From a virus: 64,000 nt of DNA. Positions 3,336 to 56,034 of the stretch are shown piece after piece. The notes below the pieces were generated by a model. That model ran no database searches and was not told the origin of the DNA. It saw only the letters and a program-made list of their open reading frames with translations. The position numbers and the translations under genes are program-made. Numbering within the stretch: the stretch's first letter is position 1; every line of letters begins with the position of its first letter. Where the stretch lies: the IMG/VR virus record IMGVR_UViG_3300024346_000007. One strand, 5' to 3'.

Positions 3336-4261
3336 TAATATTCTTTAAACTTTCTTAAAATAGTATCAACTCTTTGTACTTGGGTATGATTCTTCATAAC
3401 TTTATTGTGTCCGTTCAAAGATATTCTTTGTCTATCTTCTTTAGCCTCTTCACTAAGATAGTAGTTTATTTTAGAGACACACTCTCCCAAACTATCGTAG
3501 TAAACTATATCTTCGTTTTCTACAAAGAGTTCGTCTATATTACTTTGAATAGGAAGTCTATCTGTAATAACTAGCTTTCCACAAGCCATGCCTTCAAACA
3601 ATCTTCTAGTTATCTCATGCCATCTGCTTTGTTGGAACACTATGATTCCGCTATTAAGGAAATCACCATACTCCATTCCAGATAACCCATTTCTATTTAT
3701 AAACTTATCAGGCATTATTTGACTAAGGTAGTCCATCAAATTAGAACCTCCAGGGCCTCTAGTAGATCTAACCTTTGGAAGTTCATCAAACGGGGTAAAC
3801 CCTGAGTATGGCTTATGTATATTGCTGTCTGCGAAGTGCGTCCACCATTCTGCGTTTATGTGCCTCCTCTTATATTCTAAGTAAGAGTCGTGGGCTGGAG
3901 TTAAAGTAAGATGGAACTTAGAGGCTTTGCTAGAATTACGTTCAAAGTTCTGGGGATCGTCTCCTGATTCCATTACCCAGAAAGCTCCGGGTATATTTTT
4001 ACTATCTAGTAAAGGAGAATCAAATCTACCCCAATCCATGTACATTATAATGTCTGGGTTGAATTCTTTTGATGTGCTATCATCAATAAGCTTTTGTATG
4101 TTAGTGTCTATATAATTGTCATACACATCAAATATAGAGTATATTTTTGTTTCCCATCCTCTAGACTCAAACTCTTTAACCACGCTCAAAGGCGTGTTCC
4201 ATACGTCCGTAGGACGGTGTGCGAATATAAAAGCTATTTTATTTACTAAAGACTGCATCAT
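3335..4261 (-). CDS. GT-B glycosyltransferase, CgeB / Glyco_trans_1_2-like
   Basis: GDDPQ, RRLFEGMACGKLVITD, EDIVYY, GHNKVMKNHTQVQRV C-terminal signature. Confidence 0.8.
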   Translation of the reverse strand: MMQSLVNKIAFIFAHRPTDVWNTPLSVVKEFESRGWETKIYSIFDVYDNYIDTNIQKLIDDSTSKEFNPDIIMYMDWGRFDSPLLDSKNIPGAFWVMESGDDPQNFERNSSKASKFHLTLTPAHDSYLEYKRRHINAEWWTHFADSNIHKPYSGFTPFDELPKVRSTRGPGGSNLMDYLSQIMPDKFINRNGLSGMEYGDFLNSGIIVFQQSRWHEITRRLFEGMACGKLVITDRLPIQSNIDELFVENEDIVYYDSLGECVSKINYYLSEEAKEDRQRISLNGHNKVMKNHTQVQRVDTILRKFKEY

Positions 4262-4874
4262 AAGTTCCAGTTCTATTTTCGTACTCGTATCTTTTATACC
4301 CTAAGCTAAATAAATATTCTATCATATCCTTCTCTTTATGCCACATAGGTTGACCAGGTATAAAACCAATCTCCATAACTATTTTACTTGGTATATGTTT
4401 TTTGAACAACTCTTTACACCCTTCTATAAATAAATGTTCTGATTGTTCTATATCTACTTTTATAACTTGTGGTAGAGGTAGCTTATCTGTATTGATTAAA
4501 TCTGATAGAGATCTCCCTGATACTAGTTCTTGTTGTCCATAAGAAACTATTTCGGAAAGAGTATTCCATCCAAGATTGTCTCCTGATCTAGATATAGCTA
4601 CTTCTCTATTGGATTCTATAAGAGCGTAGTTAAATGGTTTTACATTAGGTTTATTTTGAAACCGTTCCACAATGTAATTATAATAATCTTTAATAGGCTC
4701 AAATATATACACCTCTACATCAGGAAGTTTTTGTAAAACTAAGTCTGTAAAGGATCCTACATTCCCACCTACGTCATATAACACCCCATTAGGTTCTAAA
4801 CTGTCAACTGCCTCTTGAACTTCTTTATCTAGTGTGGATTTTAATACGGCATCCCAGCCACTATAATCAGCCAT
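4239..4874 (-). CDS. FkbM family methyltransferase
   Basis: YDVGGNVGSF, YIFEP, NYAL, VIKVDIEQSE. Confidence 0.85.
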   Translation of the reverse strand: MADYSGWDAVLKSTLDKEVQEAVDSLEPNGVLYDVGGNVGSFTDLVLQKLPDVEVYIFEPIKDYYNYIVERFQNKPNVKPFNYALIESNREVAISRSGDNLGWNTLSEIVSYGQQELVSGRSLSDLINTDKLPLPQVIKVDIEQSEHLFIEGCKELFKKHIPSKIVMEIGFIPGQPMWHKEKDMIEYLFSLGYKRYEYENRTGTYDAVFSK

Positions 4875-11637: not shown

Positions 11638-13293
11638 TTATTGCATGAATTGACTATAATCGATATTATCTTTCTTCTCGTCTCCTGTAAAGTATACTAC
11701 TGATTCTGTAGTAAGGATGGTACCAGCTACACTAGCAGCATTTTCAATAGCAGTCCTTGTTACTTTAGTAGGATCTAAGATACCTGCTGTGAAAAAGTTT
11801 TGAATCTCCCCAGTCTTGGCGTTGTATCCGTACCATATGCTATCATCTTCGTCAATAGCATAACTCTTTACACTACTTAGAATCTCATATGCATTCTCAA
11901 TACCAGCATTGGTAAGAATGGTTTTAAACGGTGCGTACAAAGCTTTAGTGACAATACGTACACCCAGTTCTTGATCATCGTTATCACAATCCAATACAGA
12001 CTCTTTAAGCAACTCTATACAGTTAATCAAGGCCATACCACCACCAGGAACGATACCTTGATCTAAGGCAGCTTTAGTAGCGTGTAATGCATCGTCTACA
12101 CGATCTTTCTTCTCTCTCATTTCAATCTCACTCATACCGCCAACATTGATAATAGCAACACCGCCAGTAAGTTTTGACAACCTCTCTTGTAGTTTTTCAA
12201 TTTCAAAGTTAGATTTGGCAATCTCGATTTGTTTTTTAATATCATTTAACCTCTGTTCAATACCTTCTACTGATCCTTTACCATCAATGATAGTGGTATC
12301 TTTAGATGATACATTTACCATACGAGCCTTACCGAACAATGGCTTGAACTCATCAGGCTTCATCTTTTCAATCTTATTACCTTTAGTAGGAGATACTACA
12401 GTACCGCCAGTAAGGATTGCAATGTCTTCTAAGATAGCAGTCCTACGATCACCAAAGTCAGGAGCCTTCACAGCACATACTTTAATAGTAGCGTTTGCTT
12501 TGTTAACTACCAAGATAGCCAATGCCTCATGCTCAATGTCTTCAGCAACGATAAGTAGAGGAAGACTTTCTGCATGTGCTGCTTGCAACAAAGGTAATAC
12601 CTGTGCAGTGCTGGTAAGTCTGCCATCATATAAGAATATCAACGGCTTATCAAACACAGCTTGCATTGTTGAGTTGTCTGTAACGAAGTATGGAGATTTA
12701 AAACCTCTGTCAAACATCATACCTTCTACTACTTCCAAAGAGGTCTCACCAGACTTTGACTCTTCTATAGCCACTACACCATCAGTACCCACTTTATCCA
12801 AAGCAGTAGCGATCAATGTCCCAATCTCAGAATCATTATTAGCAGAGATAGTTGCTACTTGCTTAATCTGATCTTCTGAAGAGATGTCTTTAGATATAGA
12901 CTTTAAACCAGCCACTACTGCTGATACTGCTTTATCAATACCTTTCTTTACTTCTACCGCGTTAGATCCTTGTGTAATGGCTTTAATACCTTCGTTCACC
13001 ATTACAGATGCCAATAGTGTGGAAGTTGTTGTACCATCTCCAGCTTTATCTGCTGATCTTACTGATACGCTTTTAATCATTTGAGCTCCGATATCCTCAA
13101 TAGGATCTTCAAGCTTTGTAAATGATTGTGCTACCGTAACACCATCTTTTGTAATCTTAATAGTACCATCAGCACCTCTAATGATTACATTCCTACCTGC
13201 AGGACCTAGTGTAGAGGACACACTTGCATTAATCTTGTTAACTCCCTCTAGGAGTTTCTTTTTGAGGTCTGTTCCAAATTCTGTCTTAATCAT
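11638..13293 (-). CDS. groEL: Phage-encoded chaperonin GroEL
   Basis: TLGPAGRNV, ITKDGVTVA, AGDGTTT, KAPDFGDRR, EKKDRVDDALHAT, GIVPGGG, DPTKVTR. Confidence 0.97.
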   Translation of the reverse strand: MIKTEFGTDLKKKLLEGVNKINASVSSTLGPAGRNVIIRGADGTIKITKDGVTVAQSFTKLEDPIEDIGAQMIKSVSVRSADKAGDGTTTSTLLASVMVNEGIKAITQGSNAVEVKKGIDKAVSAVVAGLKSISKDISSEDQIKQVATISANNDSEIGTLIATALDKVGTDGVVAIEESKSGETSLEVVEGMMFDRGFKSPYFVTDNSTMQAVFDKPLIFLYDGRLTSTAQVLPLLQAAHAESLPLLIVAEDIEHEALAILVVNKANATIKVCAVKAPDFGDRRTAILEDIAILTGGTVVSPTKGNKIEKMKPDEFKPLFGKARMVNVSSKDTTIIDGKGSVEGIEQRLNDIKKQIEIAKSNFEIEKLQERLSKLTGGVAIINVGGMSEIEMREKKDRVDDALHATKAALDQGIVPGGGMALINCIELLKESVLDCDNDDQELGVRIVTKALYAPFKTILTNAGIENAYEILSSVKSYAIDEDDSIWYGYNAKTGEIQNFFTAGILDPTKVTRTAIENAASVAGTILTTESVVYFTGDEKKDNIDYSQFMQ

Positions 13294-16850: not shown

Positions 16851-17029
16851 TTTTTATTTCCTTTTAACCACTTCTCTTCGTAAGGGCACTCTTTACATTT
16901 ATTACCGCAGCACTTGCCTCTTTGGGAAAGATAGAGAGCAGTGAATACAAAGTATCCAGTCTGCTCATCTATATAATAATCAATCCCTTCTTGTAATTTA
17001 TTGTTCGACACTACAGTTGGCCCCGGCAC
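16832..17029 (-). CDS. Cys-rich DUF5522-like protein
   Basis: GYFVFTA.YL.QRGKCCGNKCKECPY. Confidence 0.7.
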   Translation of the reverse strand: MPGPTVVSNNKLQEGIDYYIDEQTGYFVFTALYLSQRGKCCGNKCKECPYEEKWLKGNKNLAKEE

Positions 17030-18851
17030 AGGCAGCTATTTGGCCAAAGTTTACAGTATCATCTTCCTCCATAACACTAGTCAAGTCCATAGAAGTAAGG
17101 TGCTTTGATCTTTCTTCATACTGTTCTTTAGTAATATCTTCAAAAGGAGCCTGTTGGTAAGTACCTCCCCAATAAGGCAATACTGATAGGCCGTTATAAT
17201 ACTCTCTGTTTTTCCACATCCACTCTCCTACTGGAAGCCACTCGTCTTCTTTAAGAGATACCGTAGCTGATACGTTGTGGGTATTGTATCCATTCCTATG
17301 GCCACTCTTAATCCAATTAACTGAGAAATGCTTTACCCTTTCTAGTAACTCTATTGGGGTCTCGCTTCTCATTATTGATCCTTCTGGTGCTTTGATAGGG
17401 ATCCTTGCACACAAGGTATCGTGAGATCTTAACACATCATCTTCACACATCTCAGGATGGTTTGCAATCAGATACTTAGCAATGTCTTCACTCTTATTAA
17501 ATCTTACTGTTCTGAGATAATAATCATTGTGCCATGCGTGTATTCCAGAAGCTGTACCCAATACACAAGATGTTGTTCCTGAAGGCTTTATACAAGTTAC
17601 ACGAGCGGCTCTGTTGATTCCTATAAGATCTGCGTATTTTGCATTTACTTCTTTTGCAATCTCAGCAGCTTTTTCAAGATCATACTTCAAGATCTCTCCA
17701 CTTCCGATACCTGTCATACCTATTCCAAGCAAAGCATCCTTCTCAGTAGTCTTCTGCCATATAGGACGGAGATAATGAAAATCAGTGAATGACGCTTGTA
17801 AAGTTCCAAAGAATGCAGCTATACGCACTCTGTCAAATAGATCCTCTTCATCTTTGATATCAGATACATTCACTTCACAAAGGTTGCAGAATTGATATGG
17901 ACGTAGTGCTATTTCGCAACATGGGTTAGTTCCCCACTCAGCATTCTTTGTCCAATAGAACCCAGGCTCTCCAGAGTTACTCAACTCTATCTTCTTCCAT
18001 AAACCTTTAAATTGTTCTTCTGTAATCTGGCCTCTTTCCAATACTGCAGAGTTATTAGACCTTCCCCTTTGTTCATTAAGTTCCCACCAATTACCGTACT
18101 TACAAGTAAGCATTTCTTCATCATCATAGCTAAACAATGCGATCATAGCAGCCCTTCTAATACCTCCAGACAATACGCTGTTAGCAATGTGGCACATGAT
18201 ATCATGCACTTCCAAGGTAGATAGCTTCTCACCGTTTTGTTTACGATCCAATATAGCTTCTATATGTGTAAGACAGATCTTAAGAGGCTCTGGTCCAGGC
18301 GCTTTTCCACCTGCAGTAATAAGCCTAGATCCTTTAGGACGTACATCTCTGTAGTCAAATGTAGGCTTAGCACCCTTACCAAAGTATGATTTCATCAATA
18401 CTTTCACAGCGTCAGCCCATCCAATAATACTATCTTGTACTAAGTATCTTTTTTGTTTTACTGGCTTTATGATTTCTGGTAACTTCTCTACGTGCTGGAA
18501 CTGAACAGAATATCCTACCCCAGTACCCCCAAGCAATAGAAACATGGACTCTGAAAAACAGTGTACGCTATCCATTGGGAGGTAGCAGCAGTTGTATATA
18601 CGTGCATTATTTACTTCAGCTGCTATGCCTGAGAACTGTAAGGCCCTCATTGAAGGAAGTACTTTTTTATCTACTATATAACTAGCGTTACCCAATATCT
18701 CTTTTTTTAAATTTGGGAACTTTTGCATTAACATAACCTCATATCTAGATACTATTTCTTCCCATGTTTCCCTTCTTTTTACTTCGGGAATGTACTTGGC
18801 GTACTTAGAAAAAATAGTTATCTGACTTAGTATCTCTGATCCTAATTCCAT
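16998..18851 (-). CDS. nrdJ: Class II (adenosylcobalamin-dependent) ribonucleotide reductase; likely start is MELGSE at 18851
   Basis: KYAKY..RRETWEE, PSMRAL, YNCC, TNPCCEI, FCNLCEVN, CIKPSGT, C-terminal ACAGANC; no beta subunit nearby. Confidence 0.9.
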   Translation of the reverse strand: MELGSEILSQITIFSKYAKYIPEVKRRETWEEIVSRYEVMLMQKFPNLKKEILGNASYIVDKKVLPSMRALQFSGIAAEVNNARIYNCCYLPMDSVHCFSESMFLLLGGTGVGYSVQFQHVEKLPEIIKPVKQKRYLVQDSIIGWADAVKVLMKSYFGKGAKPTFDYRDVRPKGSRLITAGGKAPGPEPLKICLTHIEAILDRKQNGEKLSTLEVHDIMCHIANSVLSGGIRRAAMIALFSYDDEEMLTCKYGNWWELNEQRGRSNNSAVLERGQITEEQFKGLWKKIELSNSGEPGFYWTKNAEWGTNPCCEIALRPYQFCNLCEVNVSDIKDEEDLFDRVRIAAFFGTLQASFTDFHYLRPIWQKTTEKDALLGIGMTGIGSGEILKYDLEKAAEIAKEVNAKYADLIGINRAARVTCIKPSGTTSCVLGTASGIHAWHNDYYLRTVRFNKSEDIAKYLIANHPEMCEDDVLRSHDTLCARIPIKAPEGSIMRSETPIELLERVKHFSVNWIKSGHRNGYNTHNVSATVSLKEDEWLPVGEWMWKNREYYNGLSVLPYWGGTYQQAPFEDITKEQYEERSKHLTSMDLTSVMEEDDTVNFGQIAACAGANCSVEQ

Positions 18852-18960
18852 GTTTTTTTGTTTTAAATTTTTGTAACGGTAAAAATAAATACCCATTGAA
18901 AATGGAAAAAAAGTTCAATTGCTCAGCTTTTTTTTTGCCACTTTTTTGATGCTTATGAGA

Positions 18961-37132: not shown

Positions 37133-39379
37133 TTATTCAAAACTTACTCCAGTACCTGTGATGTTGAATTCCAACAAGATGAATTCGATAGACTTAACAG
37201 GAGACACGTAGATTTTACCTACAAGCTGGTTACGATCAATTACATCGTTAGTATTAAGTGAATCACTTAGATCAATCCTGAAGGCATACAGACCTTGACG
37301 AGACTGTACGTTCTCCATGTATGGAGTGATAGCAGAGATCAACTTGTTTCTAGTAGCTGCAGTGTTGTTCTCGAACACGTAGTTAAGAGCTACACCACTG
37401 ATGTATTCACGAAGATTGATTAACAACCTACGTACATTGATGCGGTTAAGAGCTGTGTCTCTAACTTGTAGAGTTTTCTGACCCCAGATTACTACTCCAG
37501 TGTTCTGGAATTTAGCGATCGGGTTAACTCTACCGTTGTAAAGAGCATCTCTATCAGCCTTTGTTAGACGGATACGAGTGTCAATTGCATTACCAAGACC
37601 ACCACGATTCAAACCTGCAGGTGCAAACCATTCAGCAGCTACCTTATCATTGTAAGCGTAGGCTTGTGGAACTACAACTGTTGGTGGAACGTATATGTCT
37701 TTAGAAGTTCCTATGCTACGAACCTTAACCCAAGGGAAGTAAGCAGCGCTATAGCTAGAATCAAGACCAGCTGCAGTAGTTATTGCTGTTACTACAGAAG
37801 CATTAAGACTAGTTAGATCACGAAGATATACACAATCTGTGCGCTCTTCTGCTGTGCTTTGAGCTACTGCTGTTACTGATGAGTGATACTCTTCAAGTAC
37901 ACCAGGTACCGCTATAAGATCGAAATTGTAAAGTTCTTTGTTAGCTATGATGTTCAAAGCTTTGATGTAAGCAACAGATCCAGGAGATGTGCTGTTAGTC
38001 AAATCATATCCGAACAAGTTACCTTGAGTTATGTCAGCTCCTGATTTCTTAATTACTGTGTAGTTTACACCATCTGTACCACCTTGGAAAGGAAGAACAA
38101 ACTTGTTATCGCCTGCTGGCTTAGTAAACGCCACGTTAAGACCAGCACCAGCGTTAGTTGGTATTGGGTTTAAGTAGTTATAGTTATCAGAGTTTGCATA
38201 GTTAAATCCTGAGAAGGTTGCACTAGATGCTGTACTTTGAACCATTGCAGCTGCTGGTAAGTTTCTTCCAGTAAAGCCGGCTATAGTTTCGTACAAAGCA
38301 GCGTGTCCGTTTGGATACAACTGAGGATGTATTGATTTTCCAGATACTCCACCAGCTACCTCTACACGAATGTAGTTAGATACGTTAGCGAAATCTCCAA
38401 ATTCTAATACATTTAAAGACAATTCATTAAACTGCTGGTACTTATCACCAATCATCTTAGAGATGTAGTTAGCAGCATCTGGGTTTAATGAAAGATTGTT
38501 GTACTGTTCGATGATAGAAGGCACTCTATCTGAGTCATTCCATGCACGAACTATGATGCTAAAGCTAGAGTAATCTTTTGAAGTAGCTCCTGCTGTTATA
38601 TTAGTTACGCATACTTTAACGTCTTTGTTGGTTTTGAAGCCATCAGACCTGTGGTGGAACCTAAATAAAGGAACACCGCTGTCAGAATATACCCATGGAG
38701 TTATTGCATGGTCGTAGCCGCTTGAGTTAGAACTAGAGAACTCACATTTACCTGCAAGGTATTCTAGTTTTCCACCAATGTCATCTGCAGAAGCTAATGC
38801 GCCACTTCCAGTAATAAAGTTACTGAAAAGTAAATAAGGGAATACTGAACTAGTTGCATAGTTCTCATCTGATCCTAACACCTTTGAAATAAAGATAGCA
38901 GATGTTGGATTAAGTGATGCACTAAAAGAAGCAGTTCCTAATACACCGCTGCCAGTACTTGCATGCATTTTAGCACCAAAAGCACTAAAAGTTCCTGTGA
39001 TAGATCCAGATATACCTACTGTAGGTGTATCATTTTTTGTAGGATACAATACTGAAAGGATGTATGATCCACTTGTGATGGCCACCAAAGTCCTAGAAGA
39101 ATTGTATACAAATCCACCATTACCAAGTACACGAGTTACTTTAACGGTGTTTCCTGCTTGCAAATAGTTGTAAGCAGTTTGTGGTAGATATGATACATTA
39201 GGATCTGACCCAAATAAAGCTGTGTACTGGCTGTAGCTAGACACATCAGTAGGAACGAATGCAGCACCTTTTTCAGTAGGTCCTACAAGGGCTAAACCCG
39301 TCTCATTCGTGCCTTGAGTATAATAACTCTGGTCATTTTCGTAGGAGTAAACTCCAGCAGAAAGAATTTGTTCTGTCAT
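37133..39379 (-). CDS. Contractile tail sheath protein
   Basis: SAGVY..E.D.S, VGPTEKG.AF.PT, WFAPAGLNRG, VNPI, WGQKTL, RINVRRL, VFENN, EFI.LEF. Confidence 0.95.
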   Translation of the reverse strand: MTEQILSAGVYSYENDQSYYTQGTNETGLALVGPTEKGAAFVPTDVSSYSQYTALFGSDPNVSYLPQTAYNYLQAGNTVKVTRVLGNGGFVYNSSRTLVAITSGSYILSVLYPTKNDTPTVGISGSITGTFSAFGAKMHASTGSGVLGTASFSASLNPTSAIFISKVLGSDENYATSSVFPYLLFSNFITGSGALASADDIGGKLEYLAGKCEFSSSNSSGYDHAITPWVYSDSGVPLFRFHHRSDGFKTNKDVKVCVTNITAGATSKDYSSFSIIVRAWNDSDRVPSIIEQYNNLSLNPDAANYISKMIGDKYQQFNELSLNVLEFGDFANVSNYIRVEVAGGVSGKSIHPQLYPNGHAALYETIAGFTGRNLPAAAMVQSTASSATFSGFNYANSDNYNYLNPIPTNAGAGLNVAFTKPAGDNKFVLPFQGGTDGVNYTVIKKSGADITQGNLFGYDLTNSTSPGSVAYIKALNIIANKELYNFDLIAVPGVLEEYHSSVTAVAQSTAEERTDCVYLRDLTSLNASVVTAITTAAGLDSSYSAAYFPWVKVRSIGTSKDIYVPPTVVVPQAYAYNDKVAAEWFAPAGLNRGGLGNAIDTRIRLTKADRDALYNGRVNPIAKFQNTGVVIWGQKTLQVRDTALNRINVRRLLINLREYISGVALNYVFENNTAATRNKLISAITPYMENVQSRQGLYAFRIDLSDSLNTNDVIDRNQLVGKIYVSPVKSIEFILLEFNITGTGVSFE

Positions 39380-51600: not shown

Positions 51601-52822
51601 ACGTAAGTACATTTATGCTAGATGTATTATAAGTAGGAGTTGATAGTTTTAAAGACCCTGTTATATTAATAGATCCTACTAATTGATAAGATCCGGTAAG
51701 TTGTTTAGAATTAGTCCAAACACTTCCGCTTTTAACGAGCAGATCACCGTATGATGATGTAGTTGTCGTGTCTATTAAATCGTGGAGCTCGCCTAATTCG
51801 TAACCGTTATCGATTTTTATGTATATTGATCCTAAAGTAGCATTTACTCTCTCAACAAAACCTAAGATAACAGTGTGATTAGGAGCAATTGGTCTAGTTT
51901 GAGTATATTGTCCTGCAGAACCGCTTAGATATATAGCTCTACCAGCTATTAATCCAGATGTATTTATTTTTCTTAAAGATCCTTCTGTTTGTATCCATCC
52001 TTCAGCTCCAGCTGATATTGGTTCTGCTACAAATCCTAAAGTATTAGCTGATCCTTGTTCAGCAACTGCTGAAGCTAATTTAACAGCTACTCTGTTGCCT
52101 TGTGATCCTGAAATATATACTACTTGTCCTTTTGTTAAAGGATTTCCTGTACTGTTGTAAGCGTATTGGTATAGATCTTCACCTATATTTGCAATAACAT
52201 TTCCTCCAGCTAATCCAAGTTGTAGAGTACCTTCTCCAGAATCATACTTTAATCTTCCCACAGCATCCACTACAGATGCCGTAGTATCAAATTGTATATA
52301 ATCTACATCTGTTAATCCTCCAGATATAATCATATTAACAGCATAAGAAGCTGTTAGAGAGGTTGTTGCAAAGCTAGAAGATACTGCATATGATGATGTT
52401 ATAGCATTTAGAGCCCAACTTGCGGTTCCAAATAGGCTACCAGTTATGCTTGGTGCGTTTAAACTACCAGTTATAGCTACTGATCCGGATACATCTAAGG
52501 TGGCGCTTAAGGGCCCTTCCTTGCCTATACCTACTAAAGATTGAGATACATATAGTGCTTGTTTACCATACTGGCCAATTCTGACAGTATTATCTGAGAA
52601 GGCTTCTATTACGGGTAATCCAGCGGCTGTATTGACGGAAAATAGAGATCCTGATAGAGAATCATCGACTGAGAAGAGACGGCCTGAAGTGCCGTCAACA
52701 GTAAATACATTAGATCCTGAAGCATTGATTGCTAAAGATCCTGAAATAGCTGAAGAGCCTGTTATATTAGCCCCTCCTTGGTCTACTATGACCCCGTTTT
52801 TTATCCGAAATTCTTGTGGCAT
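45668..52822 (-). CDS. Giant tail fibre / tailspike (2384 aa) with two putative right-handed beta-helix domains and two collagen-like Gly-Ser/Thr repeat tracts
   Basis: Pectin-lyase-like starts YNAIKTAI...V.PGIYIE and GGDFTSI...V.PGQYTE; HGNL.GL.ADDHTQY fibre motif; G-X-Y tracts. Confidence 0.8.
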   Translation of the reverse strand: MPQEFRIKNGVIVDQGGANITGSSAISGSLAINASGSNVFTVDGTSGRLFSVDDSLSGSLFSVNTAAGLPVIEAFSDNTVRIGQYGKQALYVSQSLVGIGKEGPLSATLDVSGSVAITGSLNAPSITGSLFGTASWALNAITSSYAVSSSFATTSLTASYAVNMIISGGLTDVDYIQFDTTASVVDAVGRLKYDSGEGTLQLGLAGGNVIANIGEDLYQYAYNSTGNPLTKGQVVYISGSQGNRVAVKLASAVAEQGSANTLGFVAEPISAGAEGWIQTEGSLRKINTSGLIAGRAIYLSGSAGQYTQTRPIAPNHTVILGFVERVNATLGSIYIKIDNGYELGELHDLIDTTTTSSYGDLLVKSGSVWTNSKQLTGSYQLVGSINITGSLKLSTPTYNTSSINVLTYNTASSTVEYSTINDLTFTKNIVNVGLSGSRGVRYNAIKTAISSITDASENNTYTVSVAPGIYIEDTITVPSWVAIKGDSSISTVVSASNPSSSIFVMSDQSMVIDMQIQGTTFTGSSAVVYSSATTPQRNAIAYVENVRFGTNYTNAKVIGSGSSGNCILQCSNVKYGGYTDAGLLKSFDVGFHVTSGSSGGIGRMQLRNVTSTNGGVAGSDNNQIFALADAPGCTFIVNGCLLTRSTGTARGTGFKVYNGGQLRLTGVNFQRWINGIWAPQTGSAPSIDAIALNFENCTTDVLIEHTGSTGKVQGTDNFLKTIIPTDAPLYEVGQDPRRLFVAKKGGDFTSISASVAWISGSNENNRYVIEVGPGQYTENTIDLTGRPYVSIVGSNIQTTQIFPSSSTQHIIKMGINNEVSFLSLANAGSGYSAIYVDDIGDFAQVHKISIYDCDRGITVLANTTDTQFYGEYVDINGTFTYGTYISSSNGGSVSTTVENYYLFPSASATIGNFVTGPSSSLSLYTSKFLGDGTTDSTAVKLENGAQLEGAAIDIQDWDYGYVVPNVGIGPNFRVVGSMIHDSTTYDFNILNATTRGRYQGVSDHSKINNASEDFYWNFLDDADGENDITRKLSVTFADGTHTDATTLIFKGSSMGVMEGGQITISGSLTINTAAGFGYLENSINPDVYQRVDWVNSTLTLSPNTNNYIYLDESGILSAAGSAPNSTQNIILGRVVTNATGVEFIDQSPYDGAHMSNKLSKFNRDALGPVFADGSIVSENVTPFKLDVTQGSYFFSENNFTPAGTGSINFTQYYRSGSGWNRSQTTTVTSNTFDSGSDVLVPLSSSAYTKHTLYLVGDGVDEEYFLVVGQTQYNSLVEAEGAALPTPPTYFSDGVVSLASIYVRSGSANIIEIQDIRPIIGFRAAGVNASATHGNLLGLGADDHTQYLLVNGTRQMSGNLGLGGNNIYNVAQVSASSIISPSITGSLQGTASWALNAFTASSADNFTVRGTLTAQTLIVQTITASVEFVTGSTHFGTVVQNTHEFTGSVSISGSLVINGTSYTAATSGTSGTSGTSGSTGTSGTSGSSGSSGTRGSSGSSGSTGSSGSTGTSGTSGSTGTSGSSGSTGSSGSTGTSGSSGSTGTSGSSGSSGQNGSSGSSGSTGTSGSTGTSGSTGTSGSSGTSGSSGSTGTSGSTGSSGSSGSSGANGSSGTSGSTGTSGSTGSSGTSGTSGSSGSTGTSGSSGTAGSSGSSGSSGTSGSSGSTGTSGSSGSTGTSGSSGSTGTSGSSGTGGTSGSSGTGFNTISNPAIGRVLVADASNNAATASAILVVNNGAVSVSGSTIITGSLSVSGASGTTLFSSNVDTLLLTGSAIITGSVVVTGSINVLGSITGSLSGTASWAINALTASSADNFTVRGTLTAQTIVVQTISSSVLYSSGSNVFGDSLLDNHEFTGSVKITGSIAVKDLALNSGLTRFVVVDSATGQFFYNTAGAAGSSGTSGSSGSSGQNGSSGSSGSSGSSGQNGSSGTSGSTGTSGSSGSSGSSGQNGSSGTSGSTGTSGSAGSSGSSGQNGSSGTSGSTGTSGSSGSSGQNGSSGTSGSTGTSGSSGSSGQNGSSGTSGSTGTSGSSGSSGSSGQNGSSGTSGFTGTSGSTGSSGSSGSSGQNGSSGTSGSSGSTGTSGSSGSSGSRGSSGSSGSTGSSGSTGTSGSSGSSGQNGSSGTSGSSGQNGSSGTSGSSGQNGSSGTSGSSGQNGSSGTSGSSGQNGSSGTSGSSGSSGSSGQNGSSGTSGSAGSTGTSGSAGSSGSSGQNGSSGTSGSSGSSGSRGSSGSSGSTGSSGSTGSTGSSGSSGSTGSSGSSGSTISLTVADGGVIQGTGITYLEFATNITATVTNTTASISATGGSGGGLATKAGSVANSSFTGNPKKATVTFAAAFTDANYSVAITGEDARSWTLESKIAGSFVINANSNTALAGSTSWVAVKHGETA
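46046..47152 (-). repeat. Coding Gly-X-Y repeat (~123 triplets: GSS/GTS/GST/GQN)
   Basis: Gly at every third residue, no Pro; 9-nt period with synonymous variation. Confidence 0.9.
47729..48430 (-). repeat. Coding Gly-X-Y repeat (~78 triplets)
   Basis: TSGTSG...SSG tract in the 2384-aa fibre. Confidence 0.9.
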
Positions 52823-52871
52823 ATGTATTTACTGTTTTCACTATCCGACAGTCCTATATAAATATAGAGAT

Positions 52872-53132
52872 CTATGGTAATACAATAGGACTAGTCCACT
52901 CTTCTGTGGCTAATATTATCAATATTTCATCGTATGTGTAGGGCCCTTGTTTTGTAGTTAACCCATCTACTGATGATGGGATTGTTTCTGAGTCCCACTT
53001 TACAAATGTCTTGGTTTGATCTACAGACTTTCTTACGGTATCTATAGAAGTCTCTAGTACTTGAGTAAAGTCAACGTTTGGTAGTTCTGATACGTTGAAG
53101 ATCATGAATTCTCTGTGTTCGTAGTTATGCAT
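52872..53132 (-). CDS. Small acidic protein ending the LamG array
   Basis: 86-aa ORF (FTQVLETS..TVRKS.D..KTFVKW). Confidence 0.6.
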   Translation of the reverse strand: MHNYEHREFMIFNVSELPNVDFTQVLETSIDTVRKSVDQTKTFVKWDSETIPSSVDGLTTKQGPYTYDEILIILATEEWTSPIVLP

Positions 53133-53135
53133 AAT

Positions 53136-53810
53136 TTATAGATTAAAGCGTGATTTTTGTGCGTTATAGTTTTGGAGGATTTCTTGTATAGTTAGCTCTC
53201 TGTTATACAAAATAAAAGACCCAGCTTGCATATTAGTAGCTGTATTTATGCTATCACTTCTGTTAGCTATAGTAAATCTATTATGTGTATTCCAAGAAGA
53301 AACTCCTGTGGCAACTAATGTTATCATTTCCCACGAGCCAGTCGTATTGATATTACTAACAGTAGCCCAAGTACTTACAGATGACCCTGCAAGTACTCCA
53401 TTTTTATATAGTTTTATACCAGTATTCCCTGTACCGCCCCAATATTGAAAAGTAGCACCGAGAGATCTTCTTACCCCCCACCCTTGAACTAAAGTTCCCT
53501 CCTCTGCATTATAAGAAATGTAAGTTTCGTAACTGCTTATATATGAGGTCAAATACATCCATATATTTGCAGTAATAGTAGTGTAGTTTTTTAAGGCTGC
53601 GTCTGTTCTTACAGCATAATCATCTACACCATCAAATACAATGCTATTATTTGAAAAAGTAGGTCCATTAACTAGGGATCCACTATTCCCATTTCCACTA
53701 ACATCATTCCAAACAGTAGATCCACTCATATAGCTATTCCTATCAGCAGCATCTAATGCTAATACTAATCCTGAAGTTACAATACGGCCAAAAGCATACT
53801 GAGTACTCAT
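53136..53810 (-). CDS. LamG/concanavalin-like virion protein, paralog 4
   Basis: GLVLALDAA..NSY.SGS.VW.D.SGN...FDGVDDY...YNR.L...E.LQNYNAQKSRF. Confidence 0.8.
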   Translation of the reverse strand: MSTQYAFGRIVTSGLVLALDAADRNSYMSGSTVWNDVSGNGNSGSLVNGPTFSNNSIVFDGVDDYAVRTDAALKNYTTITANIWMYLTSYISSYETYISYNAEEGTLVQGWGVRRSLGATFQYWGGTGNTGIKLYKNGVLAGSSVSTWATVSNINTTGSWEMITLVATGVSSWNTHNRFTIANRSDSINTATNMQAGSFILYNRELTIQEILQNYNAQKSRFNL

Positions 53811-54562
53811 TTGTCTTCATTTAATCGTTTCCATATATAGCCCTTGTGAGTCTTTCTTTCACCGCTTAAGCATCTAAATACCCCTGAAGCAGTTGCTCCT
53901 GTTTGACGGATGGCTTCTTTTATAGATTCGTAAGTTGCTATTATTTGTCCATCTAAACTAAGTAATTGTATATTCACTTTAGCTTTATTAGCCAAACTCA
54001 TCTTTACCTTTGTTTCCTCAGAAGTTGGCCTACCTTTATGAAATTCGCTTATCATTCTTTTCTGGTCTTCTGAGATCTTTTTTCCTTTATTTCTTTCAGA
54101 CACTTTTTTAATGTGGTCCAAACTAAGTTTTCTTCCTTTTAACCCTTTTGAGATATTTTTAGCGTGATCTTCTGTTTTTTTCTTACCAATATGAGCCTCA
54201 CTCATTTTTTTTCTTGTTTCTTCAGACGCTTTCTTCCCTGTTATAGCCTTCCTATGATTTTCTATTTGGGTATGTGTTTTTTTATACCCAGCAGTACCCT
54301 CTCCACCATCAGTTAAATTATACCCATTAGGACGTTTTGTATTAAGCTTTTCTATCCAAAATATTTCTCTAATTGATAGTTCTTCTGGTTTTATATTTTC
54401 TTCTAGTATTTCTTTAATAAAACTTTCCTTTCCATACTTTTGTATAGCTTTATTTATTATCACTCCTGATCCTAAGTAATACTTACTTTTGTTAACAGGT
54501 TTACTCATTTTACCAACATACATCTTATTATTTATCATATTGGTTATACAATATATGTACAT
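53807..54562 (-). mobile_element. Free-standing GIY-YIG homing endonuclease (Seg-like) with NUMOD3 and NUMOD1-type DNA-binding repeats
   Basis: YIY...YVG, YLGSG, REIFWI, GYNLTDGGEG, SEETRKKMSEAH repeats, C-terminal YESIKEA...KGYIWK. Confidence 0.9.
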
Positions 54563-54624
54563 ATTTTATCTTTTATATAAATATGTAGATTTTGTATTTT
54601 ACCGTTTGCGTATTGTGTTGCCAT
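54544..54624 (-). pseudogene. Orphaned 5' end of a LamG gene (MATQYANGKI) running into the endonuclease insertion
   Basis: GTTATG start 4 nt after the upstream stop; the first 10 codons parallel MSTQYAFGRI at 53810. Confidence 0.65.
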
Positions 54625-54628
54625 AACT

Positions 54629-55345
54629 TTATAGATTGAATCTTGATTTTAATGCGTTGTAGTTTTGGAGGACTTCTTGTGCTGAGAGAGCTCGGTTATA
54701 TATCCGTGTATTATATATTTTTCCATTTGTCCAGCCTCTAAATGAACCTCCAAATTTTAAAACACCTGTGCCTCCGATATTAACAGGTGTATCTATTGCA
54801 ATATCAAAAGTAGATGTAAATACCCCAGTTGTAATTAACCTGCCATTAATATATATCTTTATTTCATCTGTAATAGTATCACAAGTTCCGACAGCATGTA
54901 CATTTATACCAAAAGCACTCATAGTCGCTAAAGCTCCTCTTTGAACTCTGTCTGTACCTGTTACTCCAAAAAATATAGCTGAGGGTCCAGCGCTTAGTAC
55001 GTATTGTTCATAAAAGTCTGCATAGTTATTTTGCTTAAATACAATAGGGGCGTAGTTTGCTCCGTAAGAGGTAACGTTAAAAAAAGAAGATACAGTAATT
55101 GAACTAGTAGGATTTAAAATTGTACTTCCACTATTAATTAATACGTAATCATCAAGACCATCAAACACAATACTTCCTAAATTATTAGAACTAAAAGTAG
55201 GTCCATTCACTAAACTGCCAGTAAAGTTATTTGCAGTTAAGTCTCTCCATGTAGTACCACTCCCAGGATATGAATTTCTATCACTAGCATCTAATGCTAA
55301 TACTAATCCATCATCAATCATATTTGGTCCACCTGATACTCCCAT
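54629..55345 (-). CDS. LamG/concanavalin-like virion protein, paralog 3
   Basis: Same conserved N- and C-terminal motifs as its neighbours. Confidence 0.8.
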   Translation of the reverse strand: MGVSGGPNMIDDGLVLALDASDRNSYPGSGTTWRDLTANNFTGSLVNGPTFSSNNLGSIVFDGLDDYVLINSGSTILNPTSSITVSSFFNVTSYGANYAPIVFKQNNYADFYEQYVLSAGPSAIFFGVTGTDRVQRGALATMSAFGINVHAVGTCDTITDEIKIYINGRLITTGVFTSTFDIAIDTPVNIGGTGVLKFGGSFRGWTNGKIYNTRIYNRALSAQEVLQNYNALKSRFNL

Positions 55346-55347
55346 AG

Positions 55348-56034
55348 TTATAAGCCGAAGCGTGATTTTTGTGCGTTATAGTTTTGTAGGACTTCTGTTG
55401 CTGATAAGGCTCGGTTGTATAGTAATCCTCCGGCTATATTTCCTTTAAAAATTCTACCTGATCCCGTATTGTCTCTAGCTAAAGATAAAGCAGCTAATGT
55501 TGTTGATGCATGACTTACGCTATTTGTAGCTGATCTTAGTCCTAATTGATTTACCAAATACGCTATTGCAAAAGTAGAAACAACGGTAATAGCAATCATG
55601 CTCCAAGATTCTGGTATTACTAATCCTGAATTCCATCCATACGTAGTAACTGTATCATTCCAATGGTATCCTATACCTTGTTGTCCAGATGGATCAACAT
55701 TCATTCCAGTTACATTACCTCCTGTACCGCCTCTTGAGTGCATCAATCCTGTATAACTTACTTGAAGACCATTTCTTTTTATCCATAGCAAAAAAGTAGC
55801 TTGAGTTAATATTATAGATCCAGCAACTGCTACGTAATCATCGACTCCATCAAAAACAATGCTTCCTCCATTAGTAGTATCAAAAGTAGGCCCATTAGAT
55901 AGAGTTCCTGTCTTTCCATTCCCACTAACATCATTCCAAACACTAGACCCACTCACATAACTATTCCTGTCTCCGGCATCTAATGATAATACCAACCCAC
56001 TAGTAACAATCCTCGGTCCATTTCCAAATGCCAT
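55348..56034 (-). CDS. LamG/concanavalin-like virion protein, paralog 2
   Basis: Same conserved N- and C-terminal motifs. Confidence 0.8.
   Translation of the reverse strand: MAFGNGPRIVTSGLVLSLDAGDRNSYVSGSSVWNDVSGNGKTGTLSNGPTFDTTNGGSIVFDGVDDYVAVAGSIILTQATFLLWIKRNGLQVSYTGLMHSRGGTGGNVTGMNVDPSGQQGIGYHWNDTVTTYGWNSGLVIPESWSMIAITVVSTFAIAYLVNQLGLRSATNSVSHASTTLAALSLARDNTGSGRIFKGNIAGGLLYNRALSATEVLQNYNAQKSRFGL

Follow-up and report, generated by a model that had tools for sequence, protein, structure and literature searches.

To our knowledge, homing endonuclease genes are thought to survive inside coding genes only by way of an intron or intein, and to be otherwise intergenic. Here we analysed a 64,000-nucleotide (nt) stretch of viral DNA (IMG/VR record IMGVR_UViG_3300024346_000007, called the window in the following), in which the gene of a free-standing GIY-YIG homing endonuclease lies inside the 5' end of a gene for a tail-fibre-like LamG-domain protein. 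The native start of the LamG gene is stranded upstream of the endonuclease gene as an orphan, and the LamG gene is read from a differently spelled substitute start downstream of it. We consider it highly probable that this is an intron-less homing endonuclease cassette, which sits in the 5' end of a coding gene and keeps that gene whole by means of the substitute start.

The closest described systems are found in fungal mitochondria and in phage T4. In the former, elements termed mORFs make hybrid genes, as in atp6 of Allomyces macrogynus and in atp6, atp9, cox2 and nad3 of Glomus (PMC3630166). The phage cassette resembles them in that an intron-less endonuclease open reading frame (ORF) sits in a coding gene together with a diverged, in-frame substitute terminal segment, that the displaced native terminus stays near-identical to relatives without the ORF, and that the substitute reads as foreign. 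However, mORFs replace the 3' (C-terminal) end of the gene and leave the native end downstream, whereas the phage cassette replaces the 5' end and leaves the native start upstream. The phage cassette also brings a promoter motif, and the start codon that it supplies is coupled to the stop of the endonuclease gene; its substitute segment is only 10 codons long, and its host is a phage, while mORFs reside in organelles. The cassette therefore works like a mORF but is not a member of that group.

In phage T4, the insert of the MobA / gene 39-gene 60 element encodes a diverged replacement of the target region, named homR (bioRxiv 10.1101/2022.08.31.505936; PMC2988022). Both elements comprise a free-standing phage endonuclease gene at one fixed site in a coding gene and a diverged homologous replacement, and in both cases there are close relatives without the insert as well as endonuclease relics and losses. 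On the other hand, MobA is an HNH enzyme, its element leaves the gene divided between two polypeptides that have gained extensions, the native segment is no longer present, and immunity is attributed to a 50-nt bypass insert and not to polymorphisms. The phage cassette encodes a GIY-YIG enzyme, leaves a single polypeptide that needs no bypass, and the orphan persists. In the literature, where our coverage of subscription journals was thin, we found no description of a phage endonuclease cassette that replaces a 5' gene end, T4 MobA homR being the nearest case.

With respect to the enzyme itself, the T4 intron endonuclease I-TevI binds across its insertion site, cuts 23-25 nt upstream, and has its own late promoter, which it represses through an operator resembling the homing site (PMC2988022). 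The endonuclease in the window shares with I-TevI and other T4 intron-encoded GIY-YIG enzymes the catalytic domain, a NUMOD3 module, a helix-turn-helix tail and a precise site in a coding gene; it also has its own late-type promoter, here as a motif only, and likely a target that spans the insertion site. By this analogy, the geometry of the insertion site fits an I-TevI-type enzyme. Unlike I-TevI, the phage cassette has no ribozyme and would owe its neutrality to a new gene start instead of splicing, and the canonical catalytic Arg is not evident. The Seg and Mob enzymes of T4 (SegF, SegG, SegB, MobE) are encoded in intergenic positions, often without a promoter, and cut far from their own genes (PMC2988022). 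They too are products of free-standing phage genes that spread by double-strand-break repair in mixed infection, but they leave no duplicated gene end, and plainly intergenic relatives of this sort are present in L014, one of the other loci compared here (denoted by L numbers).

Insertion Point of the Cassette

The arrangement of the locus is given in Table 1. All genes at the locus are on the minus strand, and the orphan start, promoter-like motif, GIY-YIG gene, ATGA overlap and intact LamG gene were all found where the initial annotation had placed them. An AGTT spacer separates the stop of LamG paralog 3 from the orphan ATG at 54624. The remnant ORF that begins with this ATG reads across the promoter motif and overlaps the endonuclease start in a frame different from that of the endonuclease. 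The 10 substitute codons join codon 11 in frame, so that the host gene stays one ORF without a coding gap. The same arrangement recurs in independent assemblies, indicating that it is not an assembly artefact. Elsewhere in the window, neither a second endonuclease copy nor a second intact target was found, and a blastn search of 53000-55400 against GenBank phages returned only short matches of 68-73% identity and no close relative.

Table 1. Features of the cassette locus in the 64,000-nt window.
Feature	Position	Strand	Remarks
Upstream LamG paralog 3	54629..55345	-	238 amino acids (aa); ORF and Pfam Laminin_G_3; TAA stop at 54631-54629
Orphaned native start, ATG + 9 codons, MATQYANGKI	54595..54624	-	Identity to intact genes of relatives
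Remnant ORF: 10 native codons, 16 junk codons and TAA at 54546-54544	54544..54624	-	Translation
Mobile cassette of 814 nt with promoter region, endonuclease ORF and replacement start	53781..54594	-	Absent from endonuclease-free relatives
Promoter-like motif ATATTTATATA	54574..54584	-	12 nt upstream of endonuclease ATG
Free-standing GIY-YIG homing endonuclease gene, 251 aa	53807..54562	-	Pfam; match to 1LN0
Replacement start, ATG + 9 codons, MSTQYAFGRI	53781..53810	-	ATG overlaps endonuclease TGA (ATGA)
Interrupted, functional-looking LamG gene, 224 aa, read from replacement start	53136..53810	-	Intact ORF
Right homology arm, codons 11-60 of LamG gene	53631..53780	-	Near-identical to endonuclease-free alleles

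We compared the locus with relatives that lack the endonuclease. The initial annotation had predicted that such relatives read MATQYANGKI-VTSGLV contiguously, and this was borne out: in more than 30 endonuclease-free loci, MATQYANGKI or a close variant runs straight into a VTSGLV-type gene body. In L001, the closest IMG/VR relative, the 30-base start runs directly into VTDGLV, and the uninterrupted gene shares 74% protein identity over its full length with the LamG gene of the window. An exact 30-mer pattern scan located the same start of the syntenic gene in L097 and L099, two contigs that lack the endonuclease. When metagenomes were scanned with a 32-mer taken from codons 14-24, a choice biased toward close relatives, 17 orthologous JGI sites were obtained, every one of them endonuclease-free (17/17) and reading M(A/S)(T/V)Q(Y/F)A(N/F)(G/S)KI directly into the gene body. 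In addition, a regular-expression search over all fetched loci yielded about a dozen further, more distant endonuclease-free alleles from IMG/VR. Note that the matches L002-L010 were uninformative on the start, as they are internal LamG domains of 728-aa fusion proteins.

The orphan of the window is identical at 30/30 bases to the intact-gene start in L097, L099, L118, L122, L123 and L127, and at 29/30 in L001. When the gene of the window was compared with that of L097, 15/27 bases differed in codons 2-10 and 3/90 in codons 11-40 (Fisher p = 3e-9). This jump, together with the 30/30 match of the orphan to L097, delimits the inserted block to the stretch given in Table 1, and the insertion point falls exactly between codons 10 and 11 of the host LamG gene. 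Similarly, the window, L105, L131 and L133 each have 0 differences in codons 11-20 from some endonuclease-free allele and at least 11 in codons 2-10.

Identity to endonuclease-free phages extends only a short way from the insertion point. On the left, the last ~47 nt of LamG paralog 3 are identical to L097, L118 and L135, the body of that gene being unrelated; these ~47 nt and the AGTT spacer form a left homology arm common to endonuclease-free phages. On the right, successive 30-nt bins show 100/90/100/70/90% identity to L097/L118 and then about 50%. The near-identity island shared by bearers and non-bearers reaches about 50-90 nt to the left of the insertion point and about 90-150 nt to its right; it is made up of the 3' end of a LamG paralog together with the 5' end (~60 codons) of the paralog that follows, both of them conserved. 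Within this island (window 53631-53780 and 54595-54690), nucleotide identity to otherwise unrelated LamG gene pairs is 87-100%, and outside it about 50%. To judge from these alignments, the island would offer ready homology arms in otherwise dissimilar phages.

Many phage endonuclease genes lie inside introns or inteins, and JGI labels some homologues of the present enzyme 'group I intron endonuclease'. The orphan might accordingly be the true start, with the interruption being eliminated from the transcript or the protein by means of a group I or II intron, an intein or ribosomal bypassing. However, Rfam gave no match at E <= 1 across 52500-56000, and the non-coding DNA around the endonuclease ORF amounts to 32 nt before it and none after it, which leaves no room for a ribozyme; the intron-less nature claimed by the initial annotation is thus supported, and the ORF does not lie in a self-splicing ribozyme as that of a group I or II intron-encoded endonuclease does. 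The endonuclease, which has its own start and stop, is read in another frame than the orphan, whose frame is closed by a stop after 26 codons; this does not agree with an intein. Moreover, the 814-nt gap is far beyond known bypassing, and a complete in-frame start is supplied anyway. We give removal at the RNA or protein level virtually no credence.

Comparison of the Two Gene Starts

The orphan and replacement decapeptides share 7/10 residues, and, apart from ATG, each of the 6 codons for shared residues has a different third base, both as described in the initial annotation. In total, 15/27 bases differ between the two starts, and the longest in-register identical run is 3 nt. The replacement start of the window differs at no fewer than 9 positions from each of 19 close endonuclease-free alleles and at 7 positions from L014. 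All of the 19 alleles have AAA as codon 9, and 18 have ATA as codon 10. Eight cassette lineages have an Arg codon (CGT, CGC or AGA) at position 9 without exception, followed by ATT, ATC or GTC. Codons 3, 5 and 6 are also consistently different between the cassette lineages and the 19 alleles, but the most consistent differences are in the two codons that abut the junction (AAA ATA to CGT/CGC/AGA plus ATT/ATC/GTC), the Lys-to-Arg change at codon 9 being the one constant addition in the substitute starts. Even among relatives of 33-40% protein identity, there is hardly any variation at synonymous sites in the first 10 codons.

A cassette-type start was not encountered apart from the endonuclease or its relic: a degenerate pattern scan of IMG/VR gave 0 matches, and no endonuclease-free gene starting MSTQYAFGRI was found in any search. 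Among the best 120 N-terminal homologues, 10 start with MSTQYAFGRI, and three new ones were looked up. Two of these (L135/L136 and L137) have an intact endonuclease gene upstream, and the third (L134) has a 59-aa helix-turn-helix relic of the endonuclease there. Endonuclease-free relatives that already begin with MSTQYAFGRI would speak against a displaced and replaced gene start; all three looked-up proteins instead have the endonuclease or its relic directly upstream.

The natural allele nearest to the cassette-type starts is that of L014, with 5-7 differences against 9-15 for the close relatives, and this endonuclease-free start already has three of the 'recoded' codons. The substitute start was therefore most likely copied from the natural gene start of a diverged relative in an aberrant founding event and then kept, as far as can be judged from these alleles. 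The initial annotation had spoken of a recoded copy; this holds in so far as the start is differently spelled at 15/27 bases, and less so for its origin, as a diverged relative's natural start is the more probable source than re-spelling in place. A founding event through microhomology at AAAAT was considered and set aside since it does not reproduce the observed left junction.

L014 (1185-5870) is a more distant LamG cluster that contains two other GIY-YIG genes (300 aa, 1870-2772; 334 aa, 3498-4502). Both are plainly intergenic, separated from the neighbouring LamG paralogs by spacers of 4-7 nt, and neither is accompanied by a duplicated gene start. The last LamG gene of the cluster is the endonuclease-free MSTQYAFGKI allele whose spelling is nearest to the substitute start.

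The Endonuclease

The 251-aa protein matched Pfam PF01541 (GIY-YIG) with 23.0 bits, the cut-off being 22.6, as well as PF07460 (NUMOD3) with 37.2 bits and PF22083 (I-HmuI NUMOD-like, helix-turn-helix) with 39.6 bits. A phmmer comparison with the I-TevI catalytic domain (1LN0) gave E = 4.6e-6 over residues 3-86. In an alignment of 20 sequences, Y15, G17, E66 and G80-Y81-N82 are invariant, and the equivalents of the two Tyr residues, Glu75 and Asn90 of I-TevI are conserved in the endonuclease of the window. The DNA-binding tail is modular, with NUMOD3 followed by a C-terminal helix-turn-helix, so that the overall layout is I-TevI-like. In the subfamily alignment, the canonical Arg...His stretch after YIG is replaced by a conserved S-(K/R)-x-Y-x-G-S-G.

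An IMG/VR protein search with the endonuclease returned only relatives of at most 29% identity, and a large protein collection contained homologues at 66-100% identity. Eight sampled enzymes form a single clade (100/100 support). The ORF is intact in 8 lineages, with pairwise ratios of nonsynonymous to synonymous divergence (dN/dS) of 0.06-0.2 at synonymous divergences (dS) of 0.5-2.8, indicating that the protein is under purifying selection.

Promoter Motif and Orphaned Start

The initial annotation had proposed that the element brings its own promoter. In the window, ATATTTATATA is an intergenic and strictly strand-specific motif, its 9-mer core having 12 occurrences on the coding strand and none on the opposite one. 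There are seven exact 11-mers, all on the minus strand (23842, 33337, 34387, 35927, 52865, 54584 and 61279), and 7/7 are within about 60 nt upstream of ORF starts, including those of both giant fibre genes. The motif is kept in the cassettes of 7/8 lineages. Strand specificity, position upstream of ORF starts and conservation in the cassettes together suggest that the motif is most likely the phage's own promoter, probably of late type. The proposal thus stands as far as the motif is concerned, and its support comes from the sequence.

Hairpins that pair with the first endonuclease codons were predicted in the window (54530-54600) and in the homologous stretches of L105, L133, L129 and L132; the partner is sequence upstream of or inside the promoter motif, or the CAATACGCA of the orphan. 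They resemble the way in which T4 hides endonuclease starts on read-through transcripts. However, the window hairpin over the endonuclease start is no better than in shuffled sequence (z = -1.4), and the folds differ in the other lineages.

These observations bear on whether the orphan is more than a leftover. It might serve as an operator half-site for self-repression, or as a short upstream ORF or hairpin arm by which translation of the endonuclease is controlled on read-through transcripts; either role would add to the cassette explanation. Its first 7 codons are nearly invariant (20-21/21 nt) across lineages whose endonucleases differ at dS 0.5-2.8, its end lies 9-11 nt from the promoter motif, predicted hairpins pair the promoter region with the first endonuclease codons in several lineages, and the late promoter of I-TevI is overlaid by an operator that looks like the homing site and is bound by the enzyme itself (PMC2988022). 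Against such a role, the orphan has 7 codons in some lineages and 10 in others, with a tail peptide that lacks conservation, the window hairpin is unremarkable as mentioned above, and L134 has lost the orphan altogether. In addition, its conservation would likewise result if the cassette repeatedly homed into fresh alleles, or if endonuclease-free genomes donated the sequence by gene conversion. A function is the third candidate reason, which we regard as possible but doubtful.

Recurrence, Spread and Loss of the Cassette

The cassette belongs to a family that occupies the same site in at least 12 endonuclease-bearing loci, i.e., the window and at least 11 other metagenome loci (same-site homologues: L100-L108, L129-L133 and L135-L137). 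Every fetched contig of the 66-100% homologues has the same site and the same order of orphan, promoter motif, endonuclease and MS(T/V)QY(A/S)FGR(I/V). The site is thus polymorphic for presence and absence, with at least 12 bearing and more than 30 endonuclease-free loci. The orphans track natural allele variation. In L103, the orphan reads MSTQYAFGKI, only one residue from the substitute peptide, yet 7/9 codons differ. Four lineages retain just 7 codons of the orphan, with a stop ahead of the promoter motif, and the remnant tail peptide is not conserved. The shortening amounts to 8 nt, and the 10-codon and 7-codon forms do not follow the endonuclease tree. The distance from the orphan ATG to the end of the substitute start is constant across lineages at 835-844 nt.

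Cassettes share 72-86% nucleotide identity with one another, against 57-75% for the flanks where these can be aligned, and two cassette loci have unrelated upstream genes. Among the window, L135 and L137, the 844-nt stretch of orphan plus cassette differs by only 1-2 bases. In these three loci, protein identity is 27-40% for the upstream LamG genes, 29-35% for the LamG bodies after residue 60, and about 80% for a conserved downstream gene of 85-87 aa. Near-identity of 844 nt amid such flanks points to very recent horizontal transfer, and the comparison indicates that the cassette has been spreading among lake phages in this way. An old, static insertion that is inherited vertically would place the pattern down to phage phylogeny and rapid shuffling of LamG bodies. 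The LamG paralogs are indeed mosaic, with conserved ends and variable cores, and recombination in the flanks could mimic mobility. However, 1-2 differences over 844 nt are hard to reconcile with a protein identity of no more than about 80% for even the conserved neighbouring gene among the window, L135 and L137; purifying selection acts on the enzyme; and endonuclease-free alleles dominate the close relatives, as in 17/17 sites of the JGI scan. A static insertion is thus very unlikely.

Decay of the cassette is represented by L134. Its relic (L134:2321-2545) consists of the last ~52 endonuclease residues fused in frame to a 7-codon MGISGGP start of the kind seen in another LamG paralog. The orphan, the promoter motif and the catalytic domain are gone, and the substitute start with its ATGA overlap is kept. 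Complete loss may be represented by L138 (2501-2545), an endonuclease-free allele in which native-type codons 1-7 are followed by codons 8-10 spelled exactly as in cassette lineage L129; such an allele could confer resistance, or it could have arisen when orphan and substitute start recombined and the cassette was lost. Codon 9 is AGA in L139 and L025, which also have no endonuclease.

Two lake sampling series contributed many of these loci, GROS21 (L100, L129 and L133) and KRAE22 (L103/L104, L130 and L134-L137), and competing cassette lineages and naive alleles seem to coexist in one habitat. As for the window itself, it encodes a GroEL-type chaperonin, a ribonucleotide reductase and a tail sheath protein (11638-13293, 16998-18896 and 37133-39379), as well as a DNA polymerase and a DnaB-like helicase. 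Its gene content identifies the source phage as a large freshwater myophage.

Proposed Mechanism

We propose that the cassette spreads as follows. The enzyme would cut endonuclease-free alleles at or near the codon 10/11 junction, which its target probably spans, and a genome that bears the endonuclease would act as the template for repair of the break. On the left, the repair arm would consist of the 3' end of the preceding LamG paralog and the native 30-nt start, and on the right of codons 11-60, both arms being short and unusually well conserved. In this manner the cassette would be copied in, the native start would be stranded upstream, and the gene would be read from the substitute start. 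Note that a plain duplication of the ten codons would rebuild the target at the right junction and create 30-nt direct repeats, both of which are avoided by the substitute spelling. Since the substitute has no in-register run of more than 3 nt in common with the native start, the right junction should not rebuild a cuttable site, as the initial annotation supposed in calling the replacement N-terminus cleavage-immune, and the two copies should be unable to recombine and delete the cassette.

Alternatively, the locus could reflect ordinary intronless homing of the Seg type, in which the enzyme cuts hundreds of bases away, the cassette spreads by co-conversion only, and the substitute spelling was acquired by chance from a diverged donor and has no bearing on immunity. 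In favour of this reading, T4 enzymes encoded by free-standing genes mostly cleave at a distance from where they are encoded (PMC2988022), L014 naturally has a start that comes near the cassette type, and no cleavage motif was recognised in the 30-nt start. However, all members of the family share one insertion point, and in four lineages the break in identity falls, to the exact base, at the cassette boundary. The concentration of the most consistent differences in the two junction-abutting codons is likewise unexpected for a remote cut, and if long co-conversion tracts had followed from such a cut, native-like flanks would not extend as far as the cassette. Distant cutting is thus improbable as the whole explanation.

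Several observations weigh against an immune, homing cassette, in addition to the sampling bias of the 17 JGI sites. With regard to the enzyme, the Pfam GIY-YIG score is just above the cut-off, the position of I-TevI Arg27 aligns to Lys or variable residues in this subfamily without a clear equivalent, and a CNNNG cleavage motif of the I-TevI type was not seen in the 30-nt start when read by eye. With regard to the spelling, the eight cassette-linked starts share one ancestor and so are not independent observations, Arg at codon 9 is not exclusive to cassettes (it also occurs in endonuclease-free L025, L138 and L139), and the three 'recoded' codons already present in L014 imply that part of the spelling difference is historical and not selected. 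Finally, the orphans are more conserved than would be expected of neutral junk at the enzyme dS of 0.5-2.8. Taking these points into account, we still hold the intron-less cassette with a substitute gene start to be highly probable.

More speculatively, the codon 10/11 junction may be the arena of a live gene-drive contest among lake phages, in which the cassette drags variable, receptor-binding-like LamG cores between phages, the orphan half-site beside the cassette promoter acts as an operator for the enzyme, the Arg-9 alleles (L025, L138 and L139) confer resistance, and L138 is a post-loss recombinant. We offer this broader picture tentatively and think it less likely than not to hold in full. 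If it is true, homing through the short conserved LamG ends moves LamG cores between phages.

Implications

The locus comprises an unusually complete series, with naive alleles, eight diverged active-looking lineages, recent copies, a relic and a candidate loss recombinant. This natural series makes the cycle of invasion, decay and loss, and the contest over target immunity, directly testable. For annotation, a short orphan start or a 'hypothetical' small ORF beside an endonuclease gene can be what such an event has left behind. Phage genome engineering would find a ready-made pair in the enzyme with its site of roughly 40 bp and the natural spelling that is predicted here to be immune. With regard to phage biology, the cassette may move tail-fibre-like modules between phages, and it represents another route to harmless insertion, by means of a promoter and a re-spelled gene end without splicing or gene splitting. 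The principle is known from fungal mitochondria, where it concerns the 3' end; here it is found in a phage, at the 5' end, with the gene left whole.

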